NCBI GenBank assembly: GCA_016841745.1
Contig: JAENYO010000002.1
Coordinates: 422,729-486,728, forward strand
Source of the DNA: Acetomicrobium hydrogeniformans
Lineage (GTDB): Bacteria > Synergistota > Synergistia > Synergistales > JAFGMB01
Reading direction: 5' to 3'
DNA: 64,000 nucleotides
Position 1 is the stretch's first letter. Each line of letters begins with the position of its first letter. This document shows positions 19,516 through 60,715 of this stretch, in pieces. The notes below the pieces were generated by a model. That model saw only the letters and a program-made list of their open reading frames with translations, did no database searches and had not been told where the DNA came from. Both the position numbers and the translations under genes were made by a program.

Positions 19516-19564
19516 AGGTCGAGATAAACTTTGCAAGTTCCCCAAAATATTGGAGGTGAAAGGG

Positions 19565-20857
19565 ATGGATATGTTTACTTTACGAAGGATTAAATTAAGT
19601 GATGTGGCATTTGGTAAGCAGACTTGCATCAAAAAAGGAGTTTTATTTATTAACAAAGACGAAATGATCCAAAATCTTTTGGATGACAACCATTTAAAGA
19701 ATGTTGATATACAACTTGCCAGACCTGGTGAAAGCAAAAGAATTATTCCCGTCAAAGATGTAATCGAACCAAGGGTAAAACTTGAAGAGGGAGTTGATAC
19801 TTTTCCTGGAATCTTTTCTGATGCGGATTATGTATCCGGTAAAGGAACGACCATTGTTCTTGAAGGCGTAGGAGTGGTTACTTCCGGAAAGATAATCAAT
19901 TTTCAGGAAGGGCTTATTGATATGTCCGGTCCTGGTTCAGAATATAGCGTTTTTTCCAGCAACCTTAATGTAGTCCTGGTTATTGACCCGGTAGATGGCC
20001 TTGGTAAACATGAACATGAGAGAGCAGTGAGGATCGCAGGTTTTAAGGCTGCGCATTACCTCGGGATGGCAGGTAAAACCGCCTCTTTTGATCAGGAGGT
20101 TAGGTATCCCGTGAACGAAATTCCGGAATTGGTGACCAGATATCCTGATCTGCCGAAGATAGTGTATGTCTGTCAGGTAATTGCACAGGGCTTGCTTCAT
20201 GATAATTATATTTATGGATTAAATGCTCAGGGATGTCTTCCCATGCTTGTTTATCCGACCGAACTTATGGATGGTGCTGTTTTAAGTGGTAACTGTGCTG
20301 CCCCCTGTCATAAACATACGACTTATCATCATCAGAATAATCCAATAATAGAGGATCTGTTAAGTGAACACGGGAAAACCCTTAATTTGATGGGAGTAAT
20401 TATTGCTCCTGTCAGGACTGCGTTGCACGAGAAGGAAAGAATAGGGAATCAGGTTCTCAAGCTAGCAGAAATGGTTGGAGCAGAGGGAGCCATAGTGTCC
20501 GAAGATGGAGGGGGAAACCCTGAGGCAGATCTTATGATACTAACCCGTCTTTTTGAAAAAAATGGAATAAAAACAGTTCTCGTGACAGACGAATATGCCG
20601 GGTCGGATGGTGCTTCACCAGGGCTTGCAGATGTTACTCCGGAAGCAGATGCAGTTGTAACTAACGGTAATGGTAATCATAAAGTGGTGTTGCCTCCAAT
20701 GAGCGAAACCATAGGGCATCTGGAGTGTGTTGATATCATAACCGGAGGGCACACGGGTAGCCTGAAGCCAGATGGTTCAATCGAAATGGAGATAGCTGGA
20801 GTAATGGGTTCGACCAATGAACTTGGGATGGAAAATCTGAAGACGGTAGCTATCTGA
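19565..20857 (+). CDS. grdE: Glycine/sarcosine/betaine reductase component B proprotein (GrdE/GrdG-like)
   Basis: ARPGES.RIIPVKDVIEPR, QEG.IDMSGPG, DGA.LSGNC, QNNP.I..L, GNP..D, DEYAG.DG motifs; ggaggtg RBS. Symbol marks the family; substrate is unproven. Confidence 0.88.
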   Translation: MDMFTLRRIKLSDVAFGKQTCIKKGVLFINKDEMIQNLLDDNHLKNVDIQLARPGESKRIIPVKDVIEPRVKLEEGVDTFPGIFSDADYVSGKGTTIVLEGVGVVTSGKIINFQEGLIDMSGPGSEYSVFSSNLNVVLVIDPVDGLGKHEHERAVRIAGFKAAHYLGMAGKTASFDQEVRYPVNEIPELVTRYPDLPKIVYVCQVIAQGLLHDNYIYGLNAQGCLPMLVYPTELMDGAVLSGNCAAPCHKHTTYHHQNNPIIEDLLSEHGKTLNLMGVIIAPVRTALHEKERIGNQVLKLAEMVGAEGAIVSEDGGGNPEADLMILTRLFEKNGIKTVLVTDEYAGSDGASPGLADVTPEADAVVTNGNGNHKVVLPPMSETIGHLECVDIITGGHTGSLKPDGSIEMEIAGVMGSTNELGMENLKTVAI

Positions 20858-20877: not shown

Positions 20878-22182
20878 ATGAAAAAAATTACTGTTGTCCA
20901 TTACATAAATCAGTTCTTTGGCCAGTTGGGCGGAGAAGAAAAAGCGGATATCCAACCTCTTATCAAGGATGGTCCTGTCGGGATAGGAGCCCAGCTTGAA
21001 AAGGTTTCTGAAGGTCGTTATAGCATAGTGAAAACGATCATTTGTGGTGATAATTATGCTGCTGAAAACCTTGAGGAAGCGGGTCTGAAGGTATTAGACT
21101 GGGTTAAAGAAGTATCTCCTGATCTATTCATAGCTGGACCTGCTTTTGGTGCAGGCAGATATGGTACATCATGCGGAATGTTATGTAAGTTAATCCAGAA
21201 GGAGCTTGGAATTCCTGTTATTACAGCCATGCATCCTGTAAACCCTGGAGTTGATCTTGCCAAAAAAGATATCTACATAATCGAAGCTGGAGATTCTGCT
21301 CGGGATATGAGAAGTGTTATTCCCAAAATGGTTCATTTTGCGGACAAACTCCTGAATCATGAACCTATAGGGTTACCTGAAGAGGAAGGATATCTTCCGA
21401 GAGGAATCAGAATAAATGTTCGTGAGGAAAAAAGGGGTTCCCGGAGAGCTGTTGATATGCTTCTTAAAAAAGTCAGGGGAGAATCTTTCGTAACTGAACT
21501 ACCCATGCCTGTATTTGACCATGTTCCTCCGGCGCCACCAGTTAAGGATCTATCAACGGCTTTAATCGCAATTGGTACTGAAGGTGGGGTAGTCCCTGAG
21601 GGAAATCCTGATCATATTGAAGCTCACAATGCATCGAAATGGTGCAAATACTTTATTGGCGATCTTGATAATCTCCAGACTGTTAAGTATGAAGTTGCTC
21701 ATGGAGGTTATGATCCGGTAGCTGCCAACGACGATCCTAACAGGGTTTTGCCTCTTGATGCAGCCAGGGCCTGTGAAAAGGAAGGTGCTTTCCGGGAACT
21801 ATACGGATATTATCCTGTGACGGTAGGAAATGTTACAGCAGTCAATTCCGCTGAACGATATGGAAGGGAAATTGGAGAAATGCTTATTGAGGCAGGAGTT
21901 GAAGGCATTATCCTTACATCCACCTGAGGAACTGGAACCCGTTGCGGTGCAACGCTTGCAAGAGAAATTGAAAGGGTTGGGCTTCCCGCCGTTCTGATCA
22001 CGGCGGTTCCCCCCATAGCATTGACAGTTGGAGCTAATCGTATTGTTCGTGGAGTAGCTATTCCTCATCCAACAGGTGCTCCAGGAGAAGATCCGGGAGA
22101 GGAATTTAATATTCGAAAAAACCTGATTCTTAAGGCCTTGAGTGCTTTATCCAGTGATATAACAGAGCAGACAGTGTTTTAA
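20878..22182 (+). CDS. grdB: Glycine/sarcosine/betaine reductase selenoprotein B (434 aa; Sec at TGA 21925-21927)
   Basis: HYINQFFGQLGGEEKA, GPAF.AGRYG, HGGYD; frame reads ILTST-U-GTGTRCGATLAREIE...ALTVGANRIV...IPHP to TAA 22180-22182. Symbol marks the family; substrate is unproven. Confidence 0.93.
21925..21954 (+). promoter_or_regulatory. Bacterial SECIS-like hairpin
   Basis: UGA, then a CGTTGC-GGT-GCAACG stem-loop whose loop begins with G 18 nt after the UGA. Confidence 0.75.
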
Positions 22183-22212
22183 CCATATTTGAGGCTGGTG
22201 GAGGTAGGGGAT

Positions 22213-44406: not shown

Positions 44407-44534
44407 AGTGAAAAATACCCATCTGTTGGAAACTGGTCTCTTATTATTTCAAGAAGAGGTAATATAAAAGATATTGTCTATTCCCGTCCTTGTTTCTACA
44501 GGAAACCGATGTTAATATTCTGTTGGACTATCAT

Positions 44535-44635
44535 AAGGCATCCGAGCCCGAAGGCCTAAGGGTTTACCTATGGCTAAGGGACGCCGGGTACTGGCGGAAA
44601 CGGCAGTGCCTCCCGTGATTGGAAAGGATTCCCTT
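44535..44635 (+). ncRNA. Moco RNA motif riboswitch, short (Wco/Tuco-like) form
   Basis: tccgag...cctaag...tatgg...ggaaac...gcctcccg...tggaaagga conserved blocks upstream of tupA. Confidence 0.75.
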
Positions 44636-44726
44636 GTTCCACCTCCCAGAATCAGGAATATTTCCATGAACTAAAGGTTCGCATTATGACTTCCAAAACT
44701 ATTTATTCCTATTGGAGGTTTGAAGT

Positions 44727-45560
44727 ATGCGCAAATCCTTTGTAAGGTCTTTGTTCCTTCTTGTTATTGTTTTCTTTCTGGCTGTATCGTTTTCTGCCTT
44801 TGCCTCCCATCCGGTTTTGAGGATGGCAACAACTACCAGTACCGATAATACGGGTCTTCTTGACGTTCTTGCACCTCGGTTCATGAACGATACCGGGATC
44901 GAGATTCAGTGGATCGCAGTGGGAACAGGGAAAGCTCTTGAACTTGGAAAAAACTGCGATGTTGATGTTCTTATGGTCCATGCTCCAGATTCCGAGAAGA
45001 AATATGTTTCTGACGGTTACGGTGTTAATAGAAGAGAGATTATGTTCAATGATTTCGTAATAATAGGTCCTGCCTCAGATCCTGGAGCAGTAAAGGGACT
45101 GGATATTAAGTCAGGATTCAGCAAGATGGCGAATAAAAAGGCTCTTTTTGCCAGCCGTGGGGATAACTCGGGAACCCATAAAAAAGAATTATCCCTCTGG
45201 GAAGGTGCAGATATGGAAGTACCAGACAGGGAAGAATGGTATATTCAGACAGGACAGGGAATGCTTAACACCATAAACATAGCTGCAGAGAGGGGAGCCT
45301 ACACTATGACCGACAGGGGTACTTTCATCAAGTATGAGGCTAATCACAAAGGTAATCCTCCCCTTGTTATCCTCATGGAAGGTGATCCGAATCTTAGAAA
45401 CCAGTATAGTGTAATGGCTGTTAATCCAACGAGGAGTGATAGTCTGAAATATGACCTTGCTCTGAAATTTATCCATTGGATCACTTCGCCCCAGGTCCAG
45501 CAACAGATAGCTGATTTCAGACTCATGGACAAACAACTTTTTGTACCAAATGCAAAATGA
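44727..45560 (+). CDS. tupA: Tungstate ABC transporter substrate-binding protein
   Basis: ATTTST.NTGLL signature, GTGKAL, VHAP, SRGDNSGTH. Confidence 0.93.
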   Translation: MRKSFVRSLFLLVIVFFLAVSFSAFASHPVLRMATTTSTDNTGLLDVLAPRFMNDTGIEIQWIAVGTGKALELGKNCDVDVLMVHAPDSEKKYVSDGYGVNRREIMFNDFVIIGPASDPGAVKGLDIKSGFSKMANKKALFASRGDNSGTHKKELSLWEGADMEVPDREEWYIQTGQGMLNTINIAAERGAYTMTDRGTFIKYEANHKGNPPLVILMEGDPNLRNQYSVMAVNPTRSDSLKYDLALKFIHWITSPQVQQQIADFRLMDKQLFVPNAK

Positions 45561-45649
45561 TCCGGCGAACCTGATGACGTAAAGTATTCTTAAAGGAGCA
45601 CAGTCTGGAAATGACGGGTGCTCCTTTCTTTCTTTTTTTGAGGTGTAAT

Positions 45650-46345
45650 ATGGATTATATGTCTCATGCTTTCTCTACTGCCTTCAAGCTTCTTGTAATG
45701 GGCAATGAGGAAACCTATTCAGCCATTTTTGTTACGTTGAAGGTTTCGTCCCTGTCCATGTTTTTTACACTTCTGTCGGGTGTGCCCCTTGGTTTTGTCC
45801 TTGGAAGCAAAGATTTTCCCGGAAAACGGATAATCAGAACAATTGTGGATACCTTTCTCGCAATTCCTACAGTAGTGGTAGGCCTTATGGTATATGCTTT
45901 CATTTCCAGAAAAGGGCCCTTGGGCAGCATGGGATTGCTTTTTTCCCTTAAAGGAATAGCCATAGGTCAGTTCATTCTTGCCATGCCTATTGTTATATCC
46001 CTTACAGCGACAGCTGTGGAGAGCCTGGAGGAAAAATTGACCCAGACCCTTATGACCCTTGGTGCACGTCGAAAAGATCTGGTGGCAGGGATCATATGGG
46101 AGGCCCGTTTTGCCGTAATATCTGCTGCCATTACGGCATATGGGAGAGTGATATCCGAAGTTGGGGTATCAATGATGCTTGGTGGCAATATCAAATGGCA
46201 TACCCGTACGATCACTACCGCCATTGCCCTTGAAACAGGAAAAGGAGAATTTGCACTTGGACTGGCCCTTGGAATAGTGCTTCTAGCTATTTCCTTTGCT
46301 GTAAATATTATTGCATCCATTATGAGAAGGAGATCCCTTTTATGA
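45650..46345 (+). CDS. tupB: Tungstate ABC transporter permease
   Basis: P.VVVGL, GPLG, YGR.ISEVG...GGNI...TRTITTAI; ATG behind gaggtg. Confidence 0.92.
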   Translation: MDYMSHAFSTAFKLLVMGNEETYSAIFVTLKVSSLSMFFTLLSGVPLGFVLGSKDFPGKRIIRTIVDTFLAIPTVVVGLMVYAFISRKGPLGSMGLLFSLKGIAIGQFILAMPIVISLTATAVESLEEKLTQTLMTLGARRKDLVAGIIWEARFAVISAAITAYGRVISEVGVSMMLGGNIKWHTRTITTAIALETGKGEFALGLALGIVLLAISFAVNIIASIMRRRSLL

Positions 46346-47004
46346 AAAAGATTCTGTATTCCCTCAAGGGTATCCGGCACTATTATTCTGGTAGAGAGGT
46401 GCTCCGCATAGGCCATGCTTTCCTTTACAAGGATGAGATAGTAGGTCTGACGGGACCTAACGGATGTGGCAAAAGCACTTTTTTGAGGATCCTGGCCTTC
46501 CTGGAAAATCCGACCTTCGGAGATATTAAATTCCTTGGAGATGCTGTTACTGATATGGAGATCCTGAGAAGAAGGGTGACTTTACTCCTTCAGAATGGAT
46601 GTTTACTGAAAAGATCGGTAATGGAAAATGTTACATATGGTCTGAAGATCCGTGGTGTTTCTGGTGAAGAAAGAGAGCGCAAGGGTAGAAAAGCTCTGGA
46701 AATGGTGGGCCTTCAACCTGAACAATTCCTTAAAAGAAGATGGTTTGAGCTTTCCGGGGGAGAGGCTCAGCGGGTATCTCTTGCAAGCAGGTTTGCATTA
46801 AGACCCGAAGTTCTTCTGCTGGATGAACCTACTTCAAGTGTAGATTCAGATAGTGCAGAGCTTATTAAACTGGCACTGGAAAGGGCAAGACATAATTGGG
46901 GTACTTCAATGGTAATAGTGAGCCATGATGATCGATGGCTGGAGAAAGTCTCAGACAGGATATTCAGTCTGGAAAAAGGAGGGCTTGTAGTTCGGATCCG
47001 GTAA
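46342..47004 (+). CDS. tupC: Tungstate ABC transporter ATPase
   Basis: GPNGCGKST, LSGGEAQRV, LDEPT; overlaps the tupB stop. Confidence 0.88.
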   Translation: MKKILYSLKGIRHYYSGREVLRIGHAFLYKDEIVGLTGPNGCGKSTFLRILAFLENPTFGDIKFLGDAVTDMEILRRRVTLLLQNGCLLKRSVMENVTYGLKIRGVSGEERERKGRKALEMVGLQPEQFLKRRWFELSGGEAQRVSLASRFALRPEVLLLDEPTSSVDSDSAELIKLALERARHNWGTSMVIVSHDDRWLEKVSDRIFSLEKGGLVVRIR

Positions 47005-49372: not shown

Positions 49373-49427
49373 ACTTGGCACCCTGGCACTGTTTGATATT
49401 TAGTTAGCTTAAGGGGGAATGGGAAAT

Positions 49428-51074
49428 ATGTTCTGTTACCAGTGTGAACAGACTGCAAAGGGCTCTGGGTGTACATCCTGGGGCGTTTGTGGAAAAAGTC
49501 CGGAAGTTGCAGATCTTCAGGATCTTCTTATCTATATTACAAAGGGAATATCCATGTATGCCCACAGGGCAAGGCAGCTTGGTGTAAAAGACAGTGAAAT
49601 CGATGTTTTTGTAGTTGAGGCACTTTTCACTACCATAACCAATGTCAACTTTGACGAAGTAAGAATGGAGAAAGCAATTCGCCGGGCTGGTGAAATTAAG
49701 TCTAAAGCGAGAGATCTTTACGAAAATGCAGCTCAGAAGGCCGGTCAGAAACCAGAGAAGCTTGCAGGTCCGGCTGAATATATCCCTCCTGGGTCCAGAG
49801 ATGATCTGATAAGGGATGGAGAAAAGGTGAATCCTGAAAGCTTTGCTGAAAAACGGGGTGAAGTGATACAGGGTCTACACGACCTGGTCCTCTTTAGCCT
49901 CAAAGGAAGTGCTGCTTATTTAGACCATGCCGTAGTCCTTGGAGTGGAAGATGATGATGTCTATGGTTTCTTCCATGAATTCCTGGATTTTCTCAGTAGA
50001 GAGAATTTTACAGTTGATGAACTTTTTGGGAGAGTCCTTGATGCAGGAAAGTGGAATATCAGGGTTATGGAGCTTCTCGATGAGGCAAACACCGGTACTT
50101 ATGGTCATCCAGAACCCACAAAGGTAAAAGTTACTCCGGTTAAAGGAAAAGCTATCCTTGTTTCTGGACATGATCTTAAGGATCTGGAGATCCTTCTTAA
50201 GCAGTCTGAAGGAAAGGGTATTAATATATATACCCATGGAGAAATGCTTCCATGTCTTGCCTATCCAGAACTGAAAAAGTATCCCCATCTGGCTGGCAAC
50301 TATGGAAGCGCCTGGCAGAACCAGAGGGAGGAATTCGATGAATTTCCGGGCTCCATTCTTATGACAACCAATTGTATCCAGAAGCCCAAGGATTCCTATA
50401 TCAACAGGATCTTTACTACTGGGCTGGTCGCATGGCCTGGAGTGAACCATATTGGTAAAGATAAAGATTTCTCTCCTGTTATTGATTCTGCCCTTTCCCA
50501 GGCAGGGTTTACTGAAGATGGGCCTGAAAAATATATAACAGTGGGTTTTGGCCGCAATGCAGTTCTTTCTGCTGCTGAAACCGTTATAGAGCTCGTGAAA
50601 TCAGGCAAGATCAGGCACTTCTTCCTTATAGGGGGATGTGATGGTGCCAAACCTGGTAGAAGTTACTACACGGATCTGGCTAAAATGGTACCTGAAGATT
50701 GCATAATACTTACCCTGGCCTGTGGTAAGTACAGGTTTAATAAACTTGATTTCGGGGACATTGAAGGGCTTCCAAGGCTGCTGGATGTCGGACAGTGTAA
50801 TGATGCATATTCCGCAGTCAAGATCGCCATGGCCCTGGCAGATGCCTTCGAAACAGATGTTAACAGCCTGCCTTTATCGATGGTACTTTCATGGTATGAA
50901 CAGAAGGCCATATGTATCCTGCTTTCCCTCCTCTACCTTGGTATAAGGAATATCCGTATAGGTCCCACTCTCCCCGCTTTTGTCAAGCCGGAGGTGTTGA
51001 ATGTGCTTCAGGAAAAATTTAACCTGATGCCGGTAACCACCCCAGGGGAGGACCTTAAGGCTATCCTTGGATAG
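49428..51074 (+). CDS. hcp: Hybrid cluster protein (hydroxylamine reductase)
   Basis: MFCYQCEQT...GC...GVCGK, SGHDL, THGEMLP, GGCDG, GQCND, SWYEQKA. Confidence 0.96.
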   Translation: MFCYQCEQTAKGSGCTSWGVCGKSPEVADLQDLLIYITKGISMYAHRARQLGVKDSEIDVFVVEALFTTITNVNFDEVRMEKAIRRAGEIKSKARDLYENAAQKAGQKPEKLAGPAEYIPPGSRDDLIRDGEKVNPESFAEKRGEVIQGLHDLVLFSLKGSAAYLDHAVVLGVEDDDVYGFFHEFLDFLSRENFTVDELFGRVLDAGKWNIRVMELLDEANTGTYGHPEPTKVKVTPVKGKAILVSGHDLKDLEILLKQSEGKGINIYTHGEMLPCLAYPELKKYPHLAGNYGSAWQNQREEFDEFPGSILMTTNCIQKPKDSYINRIFTTGLVAWPGVNHIGKDKDFSPVIDSALSQAGFTEDGPEKYITVGFGRNAVLSAAETVIELVKSGKIRHFFLIGGCDGAKPGRSYYTDLAKMVPEDCIILTLACGKYRFNKLDFGDIEGLPRLLDVGQCNDAYSAVKIAMALADAFETDVNSLPLSMVLSWYEQKAICILLSLLYLGIRNIRIGPTLPAFVKPEVLNVLQEKFNLMPVTTPGEDLKAILG

Positions 51075-51122
51075 CAAACCTTAACAAGCTTTAGAGCATA
51101 GCCTTTGTATGGAGGTATTAAC

Positions 51123-51461
51123 ATGGAAAAATATGTTTCTGACGATTCAATTAGCGGAAAAGTACTCAAGCTGGAAGATCTCGTCCAGTACCAGCAGGAT
51201 TCAGTTGTAAGCAGGGCCATAATCCAGGGAGAAAAGGGAACGGTTACCCTGTTTGCTTTCGACGAGGGGCAGTCTTTAAGTGAGCATAGTGCTCCCTTTG
51301 ATGTGCTTGTCCAGGTTTTGGAGGGAGCAATGGAGATAAGGATTGGAGGAGATCCTAACAAAGTGTCTTCTGGAGAAGTCTTGATAATGCCTGCTAATAT
51401 CCCTCATTCTCTTAAAGCTACAACAAAGGTTAAAATGAACCTCGTAATGATAAGGTCTTGA
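51123..51461 (+). CDS. Cupin domain protein
   Basis: TLFAFD.GQ.LSEHSAP, MPAN.PH.L. Confidence 0.88.
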   Translation: MEKYVSDDSISGKVLKLEDLVQYQQDSVVSRAIIQGEKGTVTLFAFDEGQSLSEHSAPFDVLVQVLEGAMEIRIGGDPNKVSSGEVLIMPANIPHSLKATTKVKMNLVMIRS

Positions 51462-51467
51462 GATAGA

Positions 51468-51497
51468 GAAAAGCCCGGGGTTCTCTCCGGGCTTTTC
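51468..51497. terminator. Bidirectional terminator
   Basis: gaaaagcccgg...ccgggcttttc. Confidence 0.8.
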
Positions 51498-51500
51498 AAT

Positions 51501-51638
51501 TTATTTCTCCCTACGGGAGAAAAGAGTATCGATAATGAATCAGCCAGTACAGGCTTTTTCTTTCTTTTCTTCTTTAACGGTGTTTTCAGAGTTCTTCTTC
51601 AGTTTTTCGGCCGGATCTTCTTTTTTCTTCCAGAACAT
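51501..51638 (-). CDS. Small unannotated protein, candidate CxxU selenoprotein (45 aa; 32 aa if UGA is a stop)
   Basis: AGGAGGTG RBS 8 nt before ATG; MFWKKKEDPAEKLKKNSENTVKEEKKEKACTG-UGA-FIIDTLFSRREK-TAA; SECIS-like hairpin. Confidence 0.55.
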
Positions 51639-51774
51639 GCAGCATACACCTCCTATACCTATATAGGGTATAATAAAAATGGATAAAAATCAACCTCTCC
51701 AGATCTGGAAGATAATGAGAGACAGGGGTATCCTGTACAGGCGGTTAAATTTTTTTTATAAGGAGCAGGTAAGG

Positions 51775-52557
51775 ATGGGATCCTTTAAGCTCAATGTACT
51801 TGTAGAAATCGTGAGTAAGGCTTCTTTGATCATTACTAACCAGGGTGACAGGTCCATCGCTCGAAGCAGGTCCAGTTCGGACTATACCACTTTTACCGAT
51901 TTAAAGGTCGAAAACTTTATTAAGGATAAACTGATCAAGCTTTCCCCGAAAAGCCTCATAATTGCTGAAGAATCATTTGACCCCGAAAGTGTTCAGGATT
52001 GGAAGGATTCTGCCTTTGTCCTGGATCCGGTGGACGGGACGATAAACTTTCATCATAACTATAATGCATCGGCTATCTCCCTTGCTTTTATTGAAGACGG
52101 TTTTCCTCTTTATTCGGTTATTCTGGATCCCTTCAGGAATGAACTGTTTGCGGCGGAGAGAGGCTGTGGTGCCTCAATGAACGGAAGGAAGATCATGGTG
52201 TAAGGAGTTTCTTCCTTGAGAGACGCCCTGGTCGGTTTTGGTACAACTCCCTATGACAAGGCCAGAGGTCTGCAAATGATTAAGGTTGCAGGGATGATCT
52301 ACCCCCGATGCCAGGACATAAGAAGATTGGGTGCGGCGGCCCTTGATCTTGCCTATGTTGCATGCGGAAGACTTGATGCCTTTTTCGAAATGGATCTTAA
52401 ACCCTGGGATTTCTATGGAGGTATGCTTCTTATAACAGAAGCAGGAGGTACAGTTTCTGACTGGAAGGGGAGAAATGTTGAGGGACTCGGGAAAAGAGAT
52501 ATTCTTGCAACCAACGGTTTGCTTCATCAGGAAATGCTGGATAGGATAAAGATATGA
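51775..52557 (+). pseudogene. suhB: Inositol monophosphatase family gene interrupted by an in-frame TAA (52201-52203)
   Basis: AEES, LDPVDGT.NF before the stop; GAAALDLAYVA.G, KPWD..GG after it in the same frame (KIMV*GVSSLRDAL). Confidence 0.8.
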
Positions 52558-57049: not shown

Positions 57050-57829
57050 TTAATTGATGGAGCAGGCCGTCATCTCGAGTGCAGTATCCTCCATAGCCGA
57101 ATAGAGATGGCCTGCGTATTCCATGGGGATTCCGGACCACATCCGGGTAGATATCCGCTGTTGTTCCCGATCTTCAAAATGGGCAACAAGGGGGTTATCC
57201 CAAAGTCCCTTTTGGAGTATATTGTCAGCAAAAGAATCTCCATACACTATCCTGCCGATATTGATAGCAGCGTTTATGTCCCTGTCGATGATCTGGCCGG
57301 AGCTGCTAAGGTAGGATTTTCCCCTTAGATGTCCCGTACGGGATTTTCTTCTCCATCTCTTGGTGCCGGAGTATTCTATCTCTTCCAGAGCAAGGGAATC
57401 TATCTGACTGGTAAAAGCCTCGTCCACAAGATGTACTTCTATCCTTGCAAGGGAACATTCAAAGCGAAGGGTATTGACAAGGTGAAGGGTAATATTAAGG
57501 TATGGGTTATCTCTGAGGGATTTATACCTTATCTTGTAAGGGTTCTTGACAGAGCGATTTCCGAGGGCTATAGACCGGATCCCCAGGCGTAGACATTCAC
57601 CTATAACATAGTGACATCTTTTTAGAAGATATGTATTTATTTCCAGGAGTTCTCCATGAATTAAATAAGGGTTTTTTTTAGCCATGGCCCGTAATCTTTT
57701 CATTTTGCCTTTTTCCAGGGTATTGGGTATCAGTATAGGTTGTTGTCCTGAAAGATTTGACACTATTGCCAGAAGATATCTTTCGCCCATATCAATGGCC
57801 ATTGCATTACACTGGTTTGTTCTCTGCAT
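57050..57829 (-). CDS. Truncated TnpB-like (IS200/IS605) RuvC-domain protein
   Basis: AIDMG (RuvC-I), IALG, VDEAFTSQ, DRDINAAINI (RuvC-III), terminal NP; strong aagggaggg RBS; lacks the N-terminal lobes. Confidence 0.75.
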   Translation of the reverse strand: MQRTNQCNAMAIDMGERYLLAIVSNLSGQQPILIPNTLEKGKMKRLRAMAKKNPYLIHGELLEINTYLLKRCHYVIGECLRLGIRSIALGNRSVKNPYKIRYKSLRDNPYLNITLHLVNTLRFECSLARIEVHLVDEAFTSQIDSLALEEIEYSGTKRWRRKSRTGHLRGKSYLSSSGQIIDRDINAAINIGRIVYGDSFADNILQKGLWDNPLVAHFEDREQQRISTRMWSGIPMEYAGHLYSAMEDTALEMTACSIN

Positions 57830-59996: not shown

Positions 59997-60127
59997 TCAA
60001 TTTTAGATATACCCCTAATAGGTATTTATACTTAATCATAATATAGTGTTTTTTACGATGTCATTTCCTCCTTTTCTTCGTAAACTATCGTTGCAAGATA
60101 AAGATATAACCCCAGGAGGAATAAGAA

Positions 60128-60715
60128 ATGAACTTTAAAAAAATTACAATTTTTGCGCTTACAGGTATTCTTATGGCTTCAGTTCCGGCTTTTGCCCACC
60201 AGGAATATGAAACAGGCAATTCCCGAAGATCCGGGTCAGTACAGCAGGGAACTGTTTGTGCATCTCAGAGTAAAGCAGAAGCATCAGGTTACAGTAATAT
60301 GAACAAAAACAGGTTGGACCATGAAAATGATGGAAAAAGGAACGGGAAAGAAAATGAAAGAGGTACGGATTTTCAGAATTACGGGAAAGCTGAAAGGCTC
60401 AGAAAAAATATGAAATCCACCGGACAAAATCTTTACGAAAACAAAGAATCTTATGGTTTAAGGGAAAATTTTAAAAATCAGGCTAACGTTGGAAGAGGAA
60501 AGAACAGGATGGAGAGCGAAAATGGGAATTCGAGTCATGATATCGCTGAAAAGAGCCATGTCGGACATTACGGGCAGAAGGGTGAAAATTCCAATAAGGG
60601 AATGAACTCTAAAAACGGAGAAGGTCGGAGAATGAAGGATGGTAATAGAGAAGCCCTAAGAGATGGTTCCGGTACGGGTGAAGGTAATAAGGATGGATTC
60701 CATCGCAACAGATAG
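60128..60715 (+). CDS. Secreted low-complexity (G/N/K/E/R-rich) hypothetical protein
   Basis: aggagg RBS, signal peptide ending AFA, hydrophilic body ending RDGSGTGEG, own terminator. Confidence 0.75.
   Translation: MNFKKITIFALTGILMASVPAFAHQEYETGNSRRSGSVQQGTVCASQSKAEASGYSNMNKNRLDHENDGKRNGKENERGTDFQNYGKAERLRKNMKSTGQNLYENKESYGLRENFKNQANVGRGKNRMESENGNSSHDIAEKSHVGHYGQKGENSNKGMNSKNGEGRRMKDGNREALRDGSGTGEGNKDGFHRNR

Follow-up and report, generated by a model that had tools for sequence, protein, structure and literature searches.

Does the UGA within a short open reading frame (ORF) on the minus strand of the Acetomicrobium hydrogeniformans genome end a peptide, or does it encode the selenocysteine (Sec) of a very small selenoprotein? 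The ORF lies at positions 51501..51638 of the 64,000-nt stretch of DNA that we analysed as a whole, hereafter the window, to which all coordinates refer. Its copies were compared among five genomes of one Synergistales family: the window's own genome (G000) and G001, which belong to one genus (g1), G002 and G004, which belong to a second (g2), and G003, which represents a third (g3). This comparison of sequences leads us to a probability of about 0.72 that the locus is a genuine monocistronic gene whose 45-residue product is a selenoprotein of an uncatalogued family, and true insertion of Sec at UGA33 likewise appears probable.

The first-pass annotation of the window had described an unannotated 45-residue ORF with a C-x-x-U motif and a ribosome-binding site on the minus strand, an 8-bp stem with a loop G 25 nt past the UGA, and a separate terminator beyond the UAA. 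All of this anatomy is real and could be read directly from the window sequence. The ORF begins with an ATG (51638-51636), the earliest canonical start of its frame, with no ATG, GTG or TTG further upstream. This start is preceded by the Shine-Dalgarno (SD) sequence AGGAGGTG (51647..51654, minus strand; GGAGG-to-ATG distance of ten bases); the remaining orthologues have an SD 6-8 nt upstream of their own ATG. Thirty-two codons, MFWKKKEDPAEKLKKNSENTVKEEKKEKACTG, lead to the TGA (51540..51542), which is the proposed Sec33 codon, and the ORF list gives just this 32-aa form (51540..51638). Behind the TGA, 12 further codons, FIIDTLFSRREK, reach a TAA at 51503-51501. Read through, the frame comprises 45 codons plus TAA, MFWKKKEDPAEKLKKNSENTVKEEKKEKACTG-U-FIIDTLFSRREK, and is found in all five family genomes. 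Its C-T-G-U motif opens with the Cys30 codon TGT (51549..51551). Past the stop, an 11-bp hairpin at 51497-51468 forms an intrinsic, bidirectional terminator (51468..51497; supported by the fold and by a call on the plus strand) that is shared with a convergent cupin gene. In a fold of the 3' part it is separate from the SECIS-like hairpin described below (SECIS, selenocysteine insertion sequence), and a post-stop terminator hairpin is present in each orthologue, with a different sequence in each.

What marks this ORF as coding beyond its UGA is the way in which the five copies differ. From the TGA onwards to the stop, their alignment needs no gaps; in every copy 12 codons are followed by TAA (four copies) or TAG (one), and C, T, G, the TGA, F34, I36, D37, S41 and R42 are invariant. 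The codons of the C-T-G triplet vary synonymously (TGT/TGC, ACT/ACC). The same pattern continues behind the UGA, where Phe is written TTC or TTT, Asp GAT or GAC, the third codon ATC, ATT or ATA (Ile throughout), the ninth CGT or AGG (Arg throughout), and the tenth CTG or TTG in two genera, both Leu. At the other tail positions Thr exchanges with Ser, Leu with Ile, Phe with Ile or Leu, and Lys with Arg, and Ser is invariant. Between G000 and G001, seven non-synonymous and one synonymous differences precede the UGA, as against none and one after it; between G002 and G004 the tail shows no non-synonymous and three synonymous differences. Within genera, all four post-UGA codon differences are therefore synonymous. 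Data from related strains (four runs) showed the TGA and the hairpin unchanged, the sole post-UGA codon difference being GAT to GAC. The predicted product thus has a fast-changing, Lys/Glu-rich N-terminal part, an invariant Cys30-Thr-Gly-Sec33 and a conserved 12-residue hydrophobic/polar tail, FI(I/F)D(S/T)xxSRxx(K/R). Because the N-terminal part varies and the tail changes only synonymously within genera, the strongest protein-like constraint lies across and behind the UGA. The first-pass annotation had asked whether homologues keep the UGA and the frame behind it: all four other genomes carry TGA at position 33, none of the five copies has a sense codon, a Cys codon, TAA or TAG there, and the substitutions downstream are synonymous or conservative.

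An ordinary stop hardly explains why the most constrained protein-like part would span and follow it. Under that explanation the product would be a 32-residue Lys/Glu-rich peptide ending in C-T-G, and the conserved remainder would be a 3' untranslated region whose hairpin stabilises or processes the RNA ahead of the terminator. We consider this unlikely. The constraint would then fall outside the protein, given how fast the peptide ahead of the UGA changes (seven of its eight G000-G001 differences are non-synonymous). The unstructured bases that separate the hairpin from the UGA vary only synonymously within genera and mostly synonymously or conservatively between them. Of the three possible frames behind the UGA, only that of the ORF is open in all five copies, for exactly 12 codons, and the other two are closed in some. 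A structural role would also leave the switch between the Arg codons CGT and AGG unexplained.

These 12 codons also contain a SECIS-like hairpin (51504..51522, minus strand), with an 8-bp stem UUUCUCCC/GGGAGAAA and a GUA loop (51514-51512) whose G, at 51514, is the 26th base past the UGA. Its folding energy is -9.5 to -10.2 kcal/mol. The hairpin falls within the last six codons (39-45, codon 39 being touched by its last base), the TAA follows directly after the stem, and the 18-nt interval separating the UGA from the hairpin was unstructured in the fold. The 106-nt stretch that holds the hairpin and the terminator gave a z-score of -5.2, and none of 200 shuffles folded as well. The bacterial SECIS (bSECIS) rules of PMC13188914 call for a loop of 3-9 nt, a stem of 4-16 bp and a UGA-to-loop distance of 16-37 nt, together with a G in the first two loop positions, mostly then G/U, and a minimum free energy <= -7.5 kcal/mol. 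In simplified form, these rules were passed after 75 of 4000 random TGA triplets of the G000 genome (1.9%). Since the hairpin alone is a 1-in-50 event, it is suggestive rather than decisive, and the weight rests on conservation.

Conservation of the hairpin, a point likewise raised by the first-pass annotation, was evident. The stem pairs alignment columns 21-28 with 32-39, in the same register in every copy, and 87.5% of the stem cells are paired; sliding the 3' partner by 1-3 columns lowers this to 40-62.5%. Of the eight stem pairs, three differ between copies at both positions (U-A to C-G twice, C-G to A-U once), giving a covariation score that was reached by 2 of 500 shuffles. The loops of the five copies read GUA, GUA, GGC, GGC and GGU, with the first base, G, invariant, and the UGA-to-loop spacing is 25 nt in all. 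The stem has 8 bp in g1 and 6 bp in g2, and is paired at seven of eight positions in g3. Judged by the rules of PMC13188914, all five copies conform in the size of loop and stem, in the loop G and in spacing, and two of the five (-9.5 kcal/mol for the hairpin alone) also in energy. Rfam returned no known RNA family at 51380-51780 in E-value mode (nine sub-threshold matches, the best at 28.3 against 90, all in the terminator region), and at the gathering threshold the window as a whole yielded just a molybdenum cofactor (Moco) riboswitch, elsewhere.

A hairpin placed just six bases upstream of a terminator, in a short ORF with a low-complexity N-terminal part, could also belong to a regulatory device, such as a selenium-sensing leader or decoy in which a ribosome pausing or ending at the UGA alters the fate of the RNA. 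This seems very improbable to us: no gene follows on the same strand and the next gene converges, which leaves nothing downstream to regulate, and sensing would not need the conserved amino acids of the C-T-G triplet and the 12-residue tail.

Can the host decode UGA as Sec? The first-pass annotation had taken a grdB-like gene as a sign that it does, and this gene indeed contains a TGA. It is accompanied in G000 by the whole set of selA, selB, selC and selD. The tRNA-Sec of G000 scored 77.9 bits and its selB, which selA adjoins, 361.8 bits; selD carries an in-frame TGA of its own, two grdA genes contain a TGA, and in three grdB genes codon 347 of the frame is a TGA. Across the family, tRNA-Sec was detected in all five genomes. 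selB scored over the cut-off in three of them, and a fourth has a fragment of it at the end of a contig; it was not found in G003, which is 86% complete. The hairpins behind the G000 TGAs have GGC (selD) or GGU (the three grdB genes) loops on 6-7-bp stems, with energies of -6.3 to -8.7 kcal/mol and an 11-nt spacer ahead of the stem. By the same hairpin-only measure as used for the mini-ORF, the hairpin of the window's grdB came to -6.3 kcal/mol. This grdB-family gene lies at 20878-22185 (plus strand), with its TGA at 21925-21927 and a GGU loop that starts 19 nt downstream, and it neighbours grdE-like (19550-20857) and octopine-dehydrogenase-like genes.

Evidence of translation past the UGA does not by itself identify the inserted residue, and a near-cognate tRNA (Trp or Cys) might read the UGA while the hairpin merely slows termination. 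We regard this as highly unlikely. The GGC and GGU loops of the orthologues equal the SECIS loops that G000 itself uses, the loop G is invariant, and every one of the five hosts has tRNA-Sec. C-x-x-U is, moreover, a recurrent motif in the selenoproteins of PMC13188914 (Table 1). Were any residue acceptable at this position, one or more of the lineages should have replaced the UGA by a sense codon.

How widely is the gene distributed? In a DNA search of 41 related genomes, the locus was recovered in G001 (93% identity), G004 and G002, and no other match rose above chance (E >= 0.016). A profile built from four of the peptides was then run in six frames over 268 Synergistota genomes; strong matches (E <= 9.3e-10) were obtained in the five family genomes, in three genera, each with exactly one TGA inside the match, and the G003 copy scored 40.3 bits. 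The same 268 genomes yielded no convincing copy outside the window's family, only nine weak matches of 15.6-21.6 bits. Three of these (L053-L055) were inspected and rejected: they showed no similarity, and the two best lie within long open frames (356 and 303 residues). The strict motif TGYACNGGNTGHTTYATHATHGAY matched four times in 261 genomes of the order, every time in the family. In the genome_contigs collection it occurred at 14 loci, of which three hold the family gene (Synergistales) and 11 lie in unrelated contexts, approximately the number expected by chance. A looser pattern gave 10 loci in metagenome contigs, two of them genuine and encoding the same peptides as G002 and G004. Taken together, these searches support a new, very small, probably Sec-only selenoprotein family of narrow distribution.

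Several observations weigh against this interpretation, and some of them speak for an ordinary stop. Gene callers and protein databases hold just the UGA-ended forms of 31 and 32 residues (one match in a first protein search, and two with E <= 0.001 among 1.84 billion representative proteins). No Cys homologue appeared among the 14 genome_contigs loci, the 10 metagenome loci, the 268 genomes of the phylum or the 1.84 billion proteins, and nearly every selenoprotein is reported to have one (PMC12013277). The hairpin is weak in three of the five copies (-5.8, -5.8 and -4.9 kcal/mol for the hairpin alone), that of G003 contains a C.A mismatch, and its loop in G000 starts 26 nt past the UGA, as against 19 nt in grdB and 18 nt in selD, hence 7-8 nt farther than in the SECIS elements of the same genome. 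The covariation statistics come from five sequences in three non-independent lineages and are thin, supportive and not conclusive. An AlphaFold2 model from the five-row alignment consisted of a single long helix at low confidence (mean pLDDT 61.5, pTM 0.22) and was set aside as too weak, and a consensus scan called no promoter at the mini-ORF. In two metatranscriptome runs of one study, contigs 95-99% alike cover the ORF (X3, 51300-51673; X4, 51360-51643), and those of X4 leave 51660-51755 uncovered; because the contigs are strandless and DNA may be present, neither the cover nor the gap was counted as evidence of a transcript. Set beside these points, the retained UGA, the protein-like conservation of the tail and the hairpin held in register support the mini-selenoprotein that the first-pass annotation had proposed.

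Known families gave no alternative identity. The mini-protein had no Pfam match, and among NCBIfam models, which cover most families of PMC13188914 Table 1, only NF050125 matched at E <= 10 (12.8 bits against a cut-off of 40), with no catalogued selenoprotein family among the matches. NF050125 would imply a precursor of a ribosomally synthesised and post-translationally modified peptide (MNIO class); this candidate was rejected on its score and on the lack of a maturase among the neighbouring genes. Such a protein is likewise absent from Table 1 of PMC13188914 and from the consulted passages of the deep-Sep (PMC12013277) and BSepDB (PMC13326102) reports, and none of the literature matches listed gave a prior description of it. 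BSepDB imposes a 200-nt minimum ORF in one step (PMC13326102), and the final filter of deep-Sep requires Cys homologues (PMC12013277). A 138-nt gene without Cys relatives would therefore be invisible to both, and pipelines built on Cys/Sec pairs would miss it.

If the gene is real, what controls it? Directly ahead of the SD, and abutting it, lies the palindrome ATACCCTATATAGGTAT (51655..51671; C8:474383-474399), which has the TAC-N9-GTA form of a CsoR/CstR-type operator; a palindrome ATACC-N7-GGTAT/A occupies the same place in all five copies. CsoR operators follow a TAC-X9-GTA rule with the consensus ATATACCCCTNAGGGGTATAT (PMC3902906), and the cst operator of Streptococcus mitis reads ATATACCCTTATGGGGTATAT (PMC8643695). 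The G003 operator, ATATACCCTTAAGGGGTATAG, differs from the published core of the latter at 2 of 21 positions. By eye, a putative -35 element TTGATT (51688..51693, minus strand) is followed, after a 17-nt spacer, by a weak -10 element TACCCT (51670-51665), and the same TTGnnn-17-TACCCT layout recurs in the G002 and G004 copies.

Operators of this type also occupy the promoter position of other genes in the family's genomes. In G000, one lies between the -35 element and the SD of a glutaredoxin gene (C7:261615). Others stand ahead of Fer4_5 membrane-protein genes in G000 (C9:3440), G001, G002 and G004, the encoded protein having 150 aa and the motif WCSSYCPRGSFLD; in G001 this gene has two tandem operators one base apart (L071, ~1501-1535). 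A desulfoferrodoxin gene is preceded by an operator in G003. In G004, the operator precedes an operon of two TGA-containing ORFs (L064, 1540-1851 and 1889-2167), the second of which (…SAG-U-RG…) scores 44.1 bits (cut-off 40) with NF041239, the model of the CC/Se motif selenoproteins. The first ORF of this operon (104 aa, …GSG-U-TS…) has no NCBIfam match and may be a divergent paralogue of the second. The window itself holds a second operator, ATACCCCTAATAGGTAT (60009-60025), which is identical to the glutaredoxin-gene site, conserved in G001, and located 102 nt upstream of a gene for a 195-aa secreted protein (60128-60715) with no Pfam match. In G002, an operator-type palindrome (C9:13265; L058) lies between a divergent PF04463 (2-thiouracil desulfurase-like) gene and a family-less 120-aa ORF.

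Which signal might such an operator convey? One PF02583 (CsoR-family) gene is present in each of G000, G001, G002 and G004. The G000 protein keeps both Cys, C44 and C73 aligning with the ligand Cys, and it carries Ser69 at the position of the Cu-ligand His of Streptomyces lividans CsoR (4adz) and of Asn55 in Streptococcus pneumoniae CstR (7mq1). The neighbouring Tyr is also missing, being replaced by Ala43. The missing His makes CstR insensitive to Cu(I) (PMC8643695). The presence of a CsoR/CstR-type operator ahead of every copy would place the gene under thiol or reactive-sulfur stress, and not in the service of the neighbouring hcp operon. Against this assignment stand the counts of ATACC-N7-GGTAT, which is barely commoner than its reversed control in the five genomes (9/7, 9/7, 5/3, 3/4 and 5/0 per strand), and the failure to find a PF02583 gene in the 86% complete G003. 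Autoregulation of the CsoR-family gene was considered and rejected: its upstream region is conserved without a TAC-N9-GTA.

For the function of the peptide, the main rival is a metal-binding role: with a copper-sensing CsoR in control, it would bind or chaperone soft metals such as Cu(I) or Hg(II). The CsoR type of the operator fits such a role, as does C-x-x-C/U, a motif shared by metal sites of the CopZ/MerP type, and several of the selenoproteins in PMC13188914 Table 1 bind metals. The sole CsoR-family protein of G000 is, on the other side, devoid of the Cu-ligand His and of its neighbouring Tyr, and the operator-bearing genes found include no copper ATPase or CopZ; they encode glutaredoxin, Fer4_5 protein, desulfoferrodoxin and a CC/Se selenoprotein instead. 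A metal-binding function consequently appears improbable to us.

We favour a free-standing selenol/thiol (selenylsulfide) redox peptide that would be induced by stress; the binding of the repressor, the signal that induces the gene and the way in which the peptide reacts are all predictions. Transcription would start at the weak promoter, whose -10/+1 region the TAC-N9-GTA operator would cover, and would be released once reactive-sulfur or other thiol-oxidising stress drives from this operator a CsoR-family dithiol repressor that resembles CstR in lacking the His. The ribosome would then start at the AUG at 51638 and read 32 codons. At UGA33, the hairpin that lies 25 nt downstream would hold SelB with Sec-tRNA(Sec) through its G-U/G-N loop, and Sec would be inserted; 12 further codons would be read to the UAA, and the separate terminator would end the RNA. 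The peptide may act through a Cys30-Sec33 selenylsulfide, alongside the co-regulated glutaredoxin and other redox proteins.

With its Lys/Glu low-complexity head and its short, constrained tail of C-x-x-U followed by a helix, the gene looks like a recently born one. A more specific scenario, which we put forward tentatively as possible and short of probable, is that this lineage-restricted, Sec-only newcomer forms part of the cargo of a CstR-type sensor, its genetically encoded free selenol acting as a 'warhead' that would capture persulfide or peroxide, or pass it on, and that the co-regulated glutaredoxin would regenerate. If so, selenium use would be linked directly to sulfur-stress signalling.

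In the window, hcp (49419-51074) and the cupin gene (51105-51461) converge on the mini-ORF, as the first-pass annotation had noted for what it called the hcp stress operon. The convergence stands in the window, and an hcp-cupin operon is arranged in this way in both G000 and G001, with a similar cluster in G002; the arrangement is absent or unknown in G004 and G003, and we place the stress link elsewhere, at the operator. An IMPase/SuhB-like gene is divergent from the mini-ORF in all five copies, and the only conserved neighbours are this gene (five genomes) and the cupin gene (three genomes). Six of 61 genomes searched have the IMPase-like gene; G061, the sole one of these from another family, has neither a mini-ORF nor an operator upstream of it. 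The window's IMPase/SuhB-like gene (51775-52557, plus strand) contains an in-frame TAA at 52201-52203 (V-TAA-G-V-S-S). Its G001 orthologue is intact (260 aa) and reads V-S-A-V-S-S, and the window copy is a fresh pseudogene or reflects an assembly error. Elsewhere in the window, a Moco/tungsten riboswitch (RF01055, 61.8 bits; 44528-44645, plus strand) lies ahead of an ABC transporter operon (44727-47004), and an ORF at 57050-57829 (minus strand) encodes a Cas12f1-like TNB domain (TnpB-like, 30.4 bits), probably a remnant of IS200/IS605 type.

What would such a gene mean? Selenoprotein catalogues rest largely on Cys/Sec pairs and on an ORF size limit, and very small Sec-only proteins fall into the resulting blind spot. 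If real, the peptide would offer a minimal natural Cys-x-x-Sec redox unit for study, and no selenopeptide before it would have been connected with a stress regulon of the CsoR/CstR type; in these Synergistales, that regulon would take in the NF041239 selenoprotein as well.

How, finally, does the mini-ORF compare with known systems? The closest are the genes with SECIS elements inside the coding region, namely grdB, grdA and selD of G000, with which it shares an in-frame UGA, a short G-loop hairpin within the coding region and the SelB machinery. The 3-nt GGU and GGC loops of grdB and selD recur in the mini-ORF orthologues, on stems of 6-8 bp. The mini-ORF differs from them in the position of its loop (26 nt past the UGA, not 18-19), in a hairpin that ends at the stop, in its size (40-46 residues) and in the lack of Cys relatives. 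As to the product, the small C-x-x-U redox selenoproteins GrdA (PF04723) and the SelW/Rdx-like proteins are alike in their small size, their Cys-x-x-Sec motif and, presumably, their selenylsulfide. They have 80-160 residues and a defined fold, and the mini-peptide matches no Pfam or NCBIfam model and is predicted, at low confidence, as one helix. To our knowledge, 40-46 residues is shorter than any natural selenoprotein. The C-x-x-U of GrdA is recorded in PMC13188914 Table 1. The NF041239 CC/Se family resembles the mini-protein as a small selenoprotein of unknown function, with a G004 member behind the same operator type; it differs in its length of ~90 residues, the mini-protein shows no detectable similarity to it, and its model was not among the E <= 10 matches. 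In the UXX-star and KCU-star selenoproteins, Sec sits close to the C-terminal end of a region that is short or has little structure, as in the mini-protein. Both families are listed in PMC13188914 Table 1; the mini-protein departs from them by its 12 conserved residues past the Sec and by the absence of a match to a hidden Markov model. With regard to control, the known cargo of CstR comprises sulfurtransferases, persulfide dioxygenase and similar proteins, and the passages describing it name no selenopeptide. The regulatory layout is nonetheless that of the CstR/CsoR regulons, with a TAC-N9-GTA palindrome and its C/G tracts placed over the promoter and a candidate repressor that, like CstR, has the Cys pair and is without the His.

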